Shown here piece after piece: positions 27,667 through 49,642 of a DNA stretch of 64,000 nt; positions within the stretch are counted from its first letter, which is position 1, and each line of letters opens with the position of its first letter. The stretch covers positions 23,529 to 87,528 of the forward strand of contig JASHPJ010000132.1 of the NCBI GenBank assembly GCA_030038195.1, read 5' to 3'. The position numbers and the translations under genes were made by a program. The stretch comes from Acidobacteriaceae bacterium. GTDB lineage: Bacteria > Acidobacteriota > Terriglobia > Terriglobales > Acidobacteriaceae. The notes beneath the pieces are model-generated. The model did no database searches, had not been told where the DNA came from, and saw only the letters and a list, made by a program, of their open reading frames with translations.

Positions 27667-28374
27667 ATGGTGAATGCGCCGATTCGAGTGATCACCGTAG
27701 AGCGGGAGTACGGGTCGCGCGGCGGGGAATTTGCGCACAACCTGGCAGAGCGGCTGGGATGGCGGCTGCTGGACTCAGAGCTGGTGGCGGGCGCGGCGCG
27801 CGTGGCGGGCGTGGACCCCAAGCTGGCGGAGCGGTTCGACGAACGGCTCGATCCCTGGTACTACCGCTACGGAAAGCTCTTCTTTCAGGATTCTTCGTAT
27901 TCCATGCTGAGCAACTCGGAGGATTTTCTGTTCGACTCCGAACGGATGCTGGGGCTGATCCGGCAGGAGATTCTGGACGCGGCCAAAGAGGGCAACTGCG
28001 TGCTGGTAGGGCGCGGGGCAGCCTGCGCGCTGGCGGGGCAGCCGGGGTGCTTTCACATCTTTGTGTACGCCACGATGCGGGCCAAGCGCGACTGGTTCAG
28101 GAAGGCCTTTCCCAAGCAGGCGCACAACGCAGAGCAGCATCTGGCCGCATTCGACAAGCGGCGCGCGGCGGTGATCCGCAGGTTTTATCAGCAGGACTGG
28201 TGCGCACGCGGAATGTATCACATGCTGCTGAACTCATGCATCGGGATCGACTCGATGATTGCCGCGGTGCAATGCGCGGCGGGGCTGGGCGTGCCGGAGG
28301 TGGTGAGTGCGCCGGGGAGCTGCCCGGAGGAGCTGAAGCCGGAAGAGATGCAGGGCGGGCCGGCGGTTCTCTAG
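27667..28374 (+). CDS. Cytidylate kinase-like family protein
   Basis: VITVEREYGSRGGE P-loop-like motif, CVLVGRGA, DKRRAA and YHMLLNS. Confidence 0.85.
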   Translation: MVNAPIRVITVEREYGSRGGEFAHNLAERLGWRLLDSELVAGAARVAGVDPKLAERFDERLDPWYYRYGKLFFQDSSYSMLSNSEDFLFDSERMLGLIRQEILDAAKEGNCVLVGRGAACALAGQPGCFHIFVYATMRAKRDWFRKAFPKQAHNAEQHLAAFDKRRAAVIRRFYQQDWCARGMYHMLLNSCIGIDSMIAAVQCAAGLGVPEVVSAPGSCPEELKPEEMQGGPAVL

Positions 28375-28545
28375 GCTGTATCGACATATAAGCGAGCAGA
28401 AAATAAAGGGCTTGTCATCCTGAGCGAAGCAGGTGCGATTTTTTGCACCTGTGGAGTCGAAGGATCTGCGGTTGCTTTCCGTCATTCCCCGCGTACTACG
28501 CCCGATTTCCAGCCTTTCTTGCCAAGCCTATATGTCGATACGGCC
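28374..28545. mobile_element. 172-bp MITE-like element (type G) carrying a GTCATCCTGAGCGA REP (28412-28474)
   Basis: TIR GGCTGTATCGACATATAAGC / GCCTATATGTCGATACGGCC (18/20), TA on both flanks. The left TA is within the upstream TAG stop. Confidence 0.82.
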
Positions 28546-28548
28546 TAA

Positions 28549-28796
28549 GAACTTGTTTAAAAACTCTTCAGAGCAAGGCAAGAGCTTTCAAGGGGCACGG
28601 CTTTATTGATTGCTGCATAAAGAATGTCCGGTTGTCATCTTGAGCGAAGTCCTGTGCAGTCCGCCGCGGCGGAGAGTCGCAGGTCAAAGATCCGCCGTGG
28701 CGGAATCTGCGGTTGCCTTTCTCATGGCACAGGACATTCCATTTGCGGGAGTCAATAGCCGTGCCCTTTCAGAACATCAGGTTTTTAGACAGGCTC
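28549..28796. mobile_element. MITE-like element type A (96-bp unit) interrupted by a 150-bp nested element
   Basis: Ends GAACTTGTTTAAAAAC / GGTTTTTAGACAGGCTC, TAA on both flanks. After removing the insert it aligns over 96 bp (~87%) with the reverse complement of 49547-49642. Confidence 0.85.
28606..28755. mobile_element. 150-bp nested MITE-like element (type B) carrying a REP (28631-28715)
   Basis: Duplicated TA (28604-05, 28756-57) in the loop of the host hairpin GCACGGCTTTAGCCGTGC. Imperfect TIR TTGATTGC...GAATGTCC / GGACATTC...GAGTCAA. Confidence 0.75.
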
Positions 28797-29995
28797 TAAA
28801 CCGGTCTGCGCGGGACGCGCGGTGCGATGCGCGTAAAGATCTCCCAGGGGATGGTGCCCGCGGCGCGGGCGTGATCGAAGGCGGTGATGGTCTGTCCGCC
28901 CTGGGTTCCCAGGATCACAACTTCATCGCCAGGCTGGACGCCGGGAACCCCGGTGACGTCGAGGACAGCCTGGTCCATGCTGACGCGGCCGACGAGCGGA
29001 GCACGTGCGCCGTGGACGAGCAGGCTGAAGCGGTTGCCGAGGCTGCGGGTGAGGCCGTCGCCATAGCCGGCGGCGATGAGCGCCAGGCGCATGGGCTCAG
29101 AGGCGACAAAGGTTCCGTTGTAGCCGACGACGGCTCCGGCAGGGACGGAGCGGACGCCGACCACCTGGGTCTTCCAACTGAGAACGGGCTGGAGATGCGT
29201 GCGGGCGGCGGCGAGCGACGCGGGCTCAGCGGATGCGAAGTCCGGGTTGAATTCGGGAACGAGACCGTAGAGCGCGAAGCCGGGACGGAGCAGGGCCTTC
29301 ATGCCGTGGTGCGCGGCGAGGTCGGCGATGGCGCGCGCCTGGCCCGCCAGAAGCGCGGCGGAGTTACCCACGTTGAGCCACTCGCCGAAGAGGCCGGCCG
29401 ACGAGATGCGGCCGAGGGTTTCGTCCAGGCGGTCGAGCTGCGCGGCGGTAACGCGGCCGTCGGCCTCGTCGGCAGCGAAGAGATGGGTCATGATGCCTTC
29501 AAGCCGGAAGGGCGACGCAGGCGAGATGTGGGCGAGGAGGACAGGGAGGGTTGTGGGGCTTGCGCCCTGGCGGCTCATGCCGGTGTCGATCTCGAGATGA
29601 ATGGGCAGAGAGCCCGGCGCGAGTCCGGCGGCGTGCGCGGCGGCTTCGAGCTGGTCGAGATGCCAGGGTTCCCAGGCAACGGGTGTAAGCCGGTGAGCGA
29701 GCAGTGCAGCAGCCTGGCCGGGAAAGACGCCGGCGATGACCAGAATCTGCGCGGCGGGGCAGAGTGCGCGGGCGACGATGCCCTCTTCCACGCTGGTGAC
29801 CCCGAGCCATTGCGCGCCAGCGCGGACGACGGCCGGCGCGCAGTGGGCGAGGGAGTGGCCGTAGGCGTCAGCCTTGACGATGGCCAGAAGCTCGGCGTGC
29901 GGCGCGGCCAGGTTGGCGAGAAAACGATAGTTGTCCTCTAGTGTGCGGGTGCGGATTTCGACCCGGCAGGGACGGGTTGGCATCGAGCTGTCCAA
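28796..29995 (-). CDS. alr: Alanine racemase
   Basis: AIVKADAYGH PLP lysine, HLEIDTGMSRQG, RPGFALYG, GYGDG and GRVSMDQ. Alternative ATG start at 29983. Confidence 0.95.
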   Translation of the reverse strand: MDSSMPTRPCRVEIRTRTLEDNYRFLANLAAPHAELLAIVKADAYGHSLAHCAPAVVRAGAQWLGVTSVEEGIVARALCPAAQILVIAGVFPGQAAALLAHRLTPVAWEPWHLDQLEAAAHAAGLAPGSLPIHLEIDTGMSRQGASPTTLPVLLAHISPASPFRLEGIMTHLFAADEADGRVTAAQLDRLDETLGRISSAGLFGEWLNVGNSAALLAGQARAIADLAAHHGMKALLRPGFALYGLVPEFNPDFASAEPASLAAARTHLQPVLSWKTQVVGVRSVPAGAVVGYNGTFVASEPMRLALIAAGYGDGLTRSLGNRFSLLVHGARAPLVGRVSMDQAVLDVTGVPGVQPGDEVVILGTQGGQTITAFDHARAAGTIPWEIFTRIAPRVPRRPV

Positions 29996-49546: not shown

Positions 49547-49642
49547 GAACCTGTTTAAAAACTTGATGTTTTGAAAGGGCACGGCTTTAGCCGTGCCCTT
49601 TCAAGGCGCTTGCCTTGCTTTGAAGAGTTTTTAAACAGGTTC
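49547..49642. mobile_element. 96-bp MITE-like element (type A) with internal REP hairpin
   Basis: Perfect 17-bp TIR GAACCTGTTTAAAAACT, TCA on both flanks (right TCA is the hemerythrin TGA stop), internal palindrome GAAAGGGCACGGCTTTAGCCGTGCCCTTTC. Confidence 0.88.

Follow-up and report, generated by a model that had tools for sequence, protein, structure and literature searches.

The window analyzed here, a stretch of 64,000 nucleotides within contig C66 of a draft genome of Terracidiphilus (Acidobacteriota, Acidobacteriaceae; 4.17 Mb in 153 contigs, 61.7% G+C), contains a cytidylate-kinase-like (cmk-like) gene and an alanine racemase gene (alr) that converge on each other and are separated wholly by three small elements with terminal inverted repeats (TIRs), which we call G, A, and B. 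Their arrangement between positions 28372 and 28799 can be written as TA(G 28374-28545)TA-A(A 28549-28796, split by TA(B 28606-28755)TA)TAA. This spacer was very probably built by the insertion of the three elements, one of them nested, at a place where the stops of the two genes used to overlap. [quoted passage not shown] The features are listed below by their positions in the window; other contigs of the genome are designated by C and a number, and REP stands for repetitive extragenic palindromic.

27667-28374, plus strand: cytidylate-kinase-like gene, 235 amino acids (Cytidylate_kin2, PF13189, E value of 1.7e-33, Pfam)
28372-28373, no strand: left TA target-site duplication of G (the complete copy of G in C69 is also flanked by TA...TA)
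28374-28545, plus strand: MITE G, 172 bp, with ends GGCTGTATCGACATATA and GGCCGTATCGACATATA
28414-28475, plus strand: REP-like core in G (GTCATCCTGAGCGAAG, a hairpin, then ATCTGCGGTTGC)
28546-28548, no strand: left target duplication of A, TAA, whose first two bases double as the right TA of G
28549-28605, plus strand: left part of MITE A, 57 nt, comprising the end GAACTTGTTTAAAAAC as well as the left arm of the hairpin up to and including the loop TTTA
28606-28755, plus strand: MITE B, 150 bp, with ends TTGATTGCTGCATAAAGAATGTCC and TTGACTCCCGCAAATGGAATGTCC, within the hairpin loop of A
28634-28716, plus strand: REP-like core in B, holding 14-bp palindromes at 28660-28673 and 28691-28704
28756-28757, no strand: right TA duplication of B (the left TA, 28604-28605, is part of the loop TTTA)
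28758-28796, plus strand: right part of MITE A, 39 nt, the last base of which is the C in the alr stop CTA
28797-28799, no strand: right target duplication of A, TAA (TNA flanks are known from the A family)
28796-29995, minus strand: alanine racemase gene alr, 399 amino acids from TTG (TIGR00492, E value of 1e-75, NCBIfam)
49547-49642, minus strand: 96-bp paralogue of A without interruption, with a TCA/TCA duplication and an intact hairpin GCACGGCTTTAGCCGTGC (fold z score of -9.5)

Both stop codons are shared with the elements. In that of the cmk-like gene (TAG, 28372-28374), TA is the target duplication and the last base is the G with which element G begins, while the TAG of alr reads as CTA at 28796-28798, its first base being the last base, C, of element A. 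A preliminary description of this DNA had proposed the same layout, and reading the sequence and its inverted repeats confirmed it at every coordinate. The 422 bp that it gave for the whole region is the right figure for the material added by the insertions; the spacer measured from stop to stop is 421 nt. By BLASTN, the whole spacer, base for base, could be assigned to repeat families that have further copies in the genome, and the search for additional copies that had been suggested returned three more of G, about 13 members of the B family, and 17 intact copies of A. As RNA, the spacer is predicted to fold into two adjoining giant hairpins, one formed by G and the other by A containing B (-193 kcal/mol, z score of -8.0), a layout that mirrors that of the elements. 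Together, the copies found throughout the genome and this fold score indicate that the arrangement is not due to chance. The open reading frames (ORFs) across G, A, and B are only spurious frames of 66 to 83 amino acids or frames antisense to alr. The terminal sequences of the elements are conserved from copy to copy. An Rfam search of the spacer region gave just one chance microRNA match (E value of 3.3), and promoter and terminator scans of the same region with simple consensus sequences found none; the scan thus lends no support to the idea that the A hairpin acts as an intrinsic terminator.

Element G carries an inverted repeat that, with its TA included, pairs 28372-28393 with 28526-28547 (22 nt, 91%). 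The four copies of the family, this one included, were detected by BLASTN and nhmmer and are 98 to 100% identical. A complete second copy (C69:3200-3371) has the flanks tTA...TAa, a clean duplication of TA, and G-type TIRs also bound a sister family of approximately 213 bp, all five members of which have TA flanks in a YTAR context. Similar ends were found in an unassembled multicopy insertion sequence (IS) with the TIR GGGCGTATCCACATATAG, of which at least 10 left and seven right ends are located at contig ends, all 17 preceded by cTA. Compared with this TIR, G is identical at 16 of 18 positions at its right end and at 14 of 18 at its left end. The coding pieces of the IS that remain at contig ends match DUF4096 (PF13340), DDE_Tnp_1 (PF01609), and NF033580 (IS5-family transposase). 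A complete, more distant IS5-family copy with matches to PF13340, PF01609, and NF033580 is present in C57, and its flanks cTA...TAg indicate that the IS5-type elements of this genome duplicate TA within CTAG. Judging from the similarity of the ends, the transposase of G is probably supplied in trans by the IS5-family IS. Members of the IS630 family were also considered as partners for the TA duplications and rejected, as the DDE_3 fragments in C152, C137, and C17 end in ...AAATCGAAAATGCTC followed by TA, unlike G or B.

Element A, with end sequences of the type GAACCTGTTTAAAAAC, has a TIR that pairs 28548-28564 with 28781-28797 (17 nt, 82%) and a central hairpin, the arms of which (28590-28602 and 28757-28769, 13 nt, 92%) are now parted by B. 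Deleting B with one TA restores a 96-bp A unit and the hairpin GCACGGCTTTAGCCGTGC, as had been proposed, and the reconstructed unit is 87.5% identical over its full length, in inverse orientation, to the paralogue at 49547-49642. A 202-codon ORF on the minus strand has its TGA stop in the right TCA of this paralogue. Apart from the 17 intact copies, the genome has at least eight A copies that are interrupted or composite, and in some of them the same loop is broken by elements other than B. The usual flank context is C-TNA-R, and perfect direct repeats of 3 nt were found at seven of the intact copies (TCA/TCA in three cases and TTA/TTA, TAA/TAA, TGA/TGA, and TTG/TTG in one each). In seven to eight of the 17, an ORF at least 200 codons long has the flank as its stop, against approximately 18% expected for TNA sites outside long ORFs. 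The excess has a binomial p of ~0.006 if eight are counted and, by our own estimate, of roughly 0.02 with seven; the eighth copy (C39) has a TAG offset by one base, as at alr, and falls outside the TNA null.

Two further observations concern the A family. A 33-nt part of the hairpin (GATGTTTTGAAAGGGCACGGCTTTAGCCGTGCC, positions 49565-49597 of the window) is 100% identical in many species, the orthologous proteins of which are only ~70% identical, which suggests selection or recent spread. In addition, variants of ~206 bp (C27:15330-15547, C41:27868-28087, and C77:7702-7930) consist of two A hairpins around a long central hairpin (TTTCACCCTCCGCTTCGCC...GGCGAAGCGGAGGGTGAAA) and may be dimers or contain a further nested element.

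Element B has an inverted repeat that, with its TA, pairs 28604-28632 with 28729-28757 (29 nt, 76%), and its nearest relative in the genome is C66:92612-92761 (97% identical). The insertion sites of this family are very uniform. Nine of 11 well-preserved members lie between (C/T)TTTA and TAGCC, eight of them with exactly CTTTA on the left and TAGC on the right, and the context CTTTAGC holds only 155 of the 82,001 TA sites of the genome. The loops that are hit belong to G+C-rich hairpins, either of an A-type element or of another repeat (GGGGCTTTAGCCCCTGAGGGATGAGTGA...). The genome has 36 unoccupied GGCTTTAGCC sites, and the hairpin GGCTTTAGCC is also uninterrupted in the paralogue of A, so that the TA must truly have been duplicated by B. 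Another species has a B-like element (L035; L numbers designate loci of other genomes) inserted between GGGCTCTA and TAGCCCC. Since B inserts almost only into GGCTTTAGCC hairpin loops, its nesting at 28604-28757 is the normal behavior of this element. The preferred hairpin loop is also carried by a further repeat family, GCCGTAAGTGCCGTAAGATGAATGGGGCTTTAGCCCCTGAGGGATGAGTGAATGACT, with 36 sites in the genome (for example, in C27, C41, C58, and C59).

G and B share a REP-like core that consists of GTCATCCTGAGCGAAG, variable hairpins, and ATCTGCGGTTGC. We found it in all copies of both families and in at least two further TIR families with other ends, so that at least four MITE families, each with its own terminal repeats, have this core inside them. 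The 14-bp palindromes belong to the core as indel modules, which some B copies have and others lack, and chimeras that join the ends of two families at the core were detected in C40, C150, and C57:139119-139330. Among 100 sampled genomes of the genus, 95 contain the core; a literature search found no paper on its motif GTCATCCTGAGCGAAG. Its presence in every G and B copy marks it as an internal module and gives no support to a separate insertion of a REP, and the four-level nesting that had been described is for this reason reduced to three insertions and two nesting levels.

The wide occurrence of this core brings up a different explanation, namely that the elements are not DDE MITEs at all and belong to the REP/bacterial interspersed mosaic element (BIME) or REP doublet forming hairpin (REPIN) type, spread by a Y1 transposase (REP-associated tyrosine transposase [RAYT]) or by recombination or gene conversion between repeats, with the apparent duplications being part of the repeat consensus. 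Both the core and the identical A hairpin are spread over the genus, the chimeras joined at the shared core point to recombination, and the genome does have a RAYT-like Y1 gene (C153:25003-25674, PF01797). However, the hairpins that flank this gene are different ones, and neither the core nor the ends of A, B, or G adjoin it; a RAYT link for the core was rejected for this reason. Furthermore, G, A, and B have long TIRs and their flank repeats are direct, not inverted, the uninterrupted GGCTTTAGCC sites show a real duplication of TA by B, and the ends of G match a DDE element of the IS5 family. We consider an origin of this kind quite improbable. The hairpins that follow the RAYT-like gene are of the type CCCAGGTC...GACCTGGGGCACCC, and one of them holds TCCGCCGCGGCGG, close to the 14-bp palindrome of B.

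The state of the junction before the insertions could be compared with that in relatives. Orthologues within the genus are 67 to 75% identical for the cmk-like gene and 57 to 76% for alr, and the two genes are convergent in nearly all relatives found. The gene pair is retained in approximately 23 relatives within the genus, among which seven distinct genomes have the stop codons overlapping by 4 nt, of the CTAA type in L004, L013, L065, and L067, CTAG in L008 and L011, and TTAG in L063. Seven others have spacers of 10 to 31 bp, and the remainder have spacers of 59 to 634 bp. Taking out G plus one copy of its TA and A plus one copy of its TAA turns the locus into GTTCTCTAAACCGG, which is of the CTAA type, and the predicted ctCTAAaccgg can be set beside gcctgCTAAacgg in L067 and ggCTAAccgg in L013. 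These overlaps are the empty site that the preliminary description had predicted for related genomes. Its proposal that the two genes overlapped at their stops and were parted by three insertions that altered neither protein agrees with this comparison, the state of the ancestor in the host lineage being a reconstruction. In the reconstructed junction the plus-strand gene ends in TAA and alr in TAG. The former stop would then have changed from TAA to TAG because G starts with a G, and alr would have kept its TAG because A ends in a C, with both proteins unaltered.

Other junctions of the genus contain different material. In relative G020 (L003:2150-2287), a different element of ~130 bp with 20-nt ends (90%) lies precisely where the cmk-like orthologue has its stop, indicating that the junction has been colonized independently. 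At L009 and L064, the junctions have a spacer of ~600 bp that resembles a small membrane-protein gene, not repeats.

In the proposed history, the 96-bp A would have inserted at a TAA and duplicated it, a 3-bp TNA duplication of the type made by IS5/PIF-Harbinger-like transposases. The 150-bp B would then have entered the TA of the TTTA loop in the central hairpin of A, duplicating TA; its transposase is expected to prefer the motif CTTTA^GCC, hence the insertion into loops almost wherever B occurs. The 172-bp G would have gone into the TA of the TAA copy on the left, duplicating TA, at a CTAA site of the sort that G-type ends use. The putative targets (YTAR and C-TNA-R) resemble stop codons and the elements start with G and end with C, so each insertion would rebuild a stop for both genes and leave the proteins unchanged. 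A was probably the first to arrive, because its best paralogue is only 87.5% identical, compared with 97 to 100% for B and G, and because other species also have the hairpin and half-units of the A type. Outside this genome, full-length G was found mainly in one sampled genome (several copies, ~80%), with one more at 73%, and full-length B was in none of the sampled genomes.

Several points weigh against this history. The overlap is one of several junction states in the genus, and its existence in the ancestor of the host lineage is a reconstruction from sequence comparison; the nearest relatives have ~70 to 76% protein identity, and their junctions range from -4 to 634 bp. The perfect direct repeats at seven of 17 copies give moderate support for the 3-bp duplication of A. 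This assembly yielded no autonomous element bounded by ends of the A or B type and no transposase enclosed by a long pair of A, B, or G ends. As for G, the assembly lacks the inner part of the candidate IS, and two to four of 18 positions at the IS ends are unlike those of G, which leaves the mobilization of G by this IS unproven. Finally, two of the four copies of G lie at contig ends of a draft in 153 contigs.

Given this range of junction lengths and the distance of the relatives, the long spacer could be old, the short or overlapping junctions of relatives being deletions and the insert-like boundaries coincidental. Against this, no base of the spacer falls outside the repeat families, all of which have copies elsewhere, and the near identity of the G copies makes them recent. 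Besides, excision at the duplications yields the exact junction type of the seven relatives, and deletions are not expected to recreate precise overlapping stops repeatedly. Of the explanations weighed here, we give this one the faintest likelihood.

The fragmentation of the draft, with copies of G and many IS ends at contig ends, would also fit an assembly artifact in which a short-read contig was threaded through repeats of different loci. A Logan contig from a public run, an independent assembly, joins the end of the cmk-like gene to the first 26 nt of G and then breaks. The break could be counted in favor of such an artifact, but the contig reproduces the junction of the cmk-like gene with G. 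In addition, the flanking genes adjoin in nearly all relatives, and the G, A, and B of this locus carry private substitutions relative to the other copies. An artifact is therefore very improbable, slightly more so than a spread by RAYT. An exact-protein look-up for alr with either start found no contig, and the sole match in a metagenome scan for junction alleles (with a 21-mer from the end of the cmk-like gene) was an unrelated gene.

The MITEs of this locus have several known counterparts. Nezha of cyanobacteria and Chunjie of Geobacter are bacterial MITEs demonstrated by empty-site comparison (PMC3184786). They resemble the present elements in being small and noncoding, with TIRs, target duplications, many mostly intergenic copies, and orthologous empty sites, while here three families fill a single junction, one of them nested, and the insertions are on the stop codons themselves. 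A second counterpart is the IS5 family with its derivatives, namely, the IS427- and IS1031-type groups and the eukaryotic "Tourist" MITEs of PIF/Harbinger. The ends of G resemble those of an IS5-family IS of this genome, and TA is duplicated in a YTAR/CTAG target. Relatives of IS5 and Harbinger make duplications of 0, 2, and 3 bp (PMC12730594), and the IS1031 group of IS5 has 3-nt targets (PMC2516522), so that the 3-bp TNA duplication of A is like that of IS1031-type and Harbinger elements (PMC2516522, PMC12730594). In contrast to these systems, the A-type ends are without a transposase found in this assembly. Correia elements of Neisseria duplicate TA. [quoted passage not shown] The sequences of Correia elements and of SPRITE, BOX, and RUP are unrelated to those described here, and the A hairpin differs in having no U-tract.

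As regards the choice of target, ISPpu9, ISPpu10, ISPa11, and ISPsy8 are known to target REP hairpins (Tobes and Pareja 2006, PMC1525189). The insertion of B into GGCTTTAGCC loops is comparable in being highly selective for a short G+C-rich palindromic repeat. However, in contrast to these IS110- and IS3-type elements, the invader is a 150-bp MITE with a TA duplication, and another MITE's hairpin is among its targets. A broader and more tentative idea, which we consider rather unlikely as a whole, is that the B transposase recognizes the hairpin-loop motif GGGC-TTTA-GCCC, so that nesting is programmed, and that the shared core acts as a recombination hub for the swapping of ends, forming a self-organizing repeat ecosystem in Acidobacteriota. 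Recognition of the loop by B is favored by the fact that at least nine of 11 insertions are at the motif, by an orientation bias of ~10:1, and by the same type of site in another species. If true, B would live almost only inside other repeats, and the stop-codon-like targets (YTAR and C-TNA-R) would let elements settle on gene ends at no cost.

Literature searches found no papers on these families and no relevant paper on "nested MITE" in bacteria. The families themselves, the narrow loop target of B, and the fit between stop codons and targets are new; the process is standard MITE biology, and the current understanding of MITEs is unchanged by this locus. Its value is that of an unusually complete record, in which each intergenic base is assigned to an insertion and the preinsertion state is kept in relatives. 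It illustrates how stop-codon-like targets let transposons expand intergenic DNA in a G+C-rich genome while leaving proteins untouched, and why repeats pile into one another. The narrow target preference of B is of possible use if its transposase is found, and the element families could be used as strain markers.

Finally, many of the places at which Terracidiphilus assemblies break into contigs are explained by these families, namely, G, A, B, the shared core, and the IS5-family element. The IS with ends GGGCGTATCCACATATAG accounts by itself for at least 17 contig ends in this genome (for example, the ends of C72, C111, C113, C127, C116, and C108 and the starts of C19 and C100) and is likely the cause of much of the fragmentation of the assembly.

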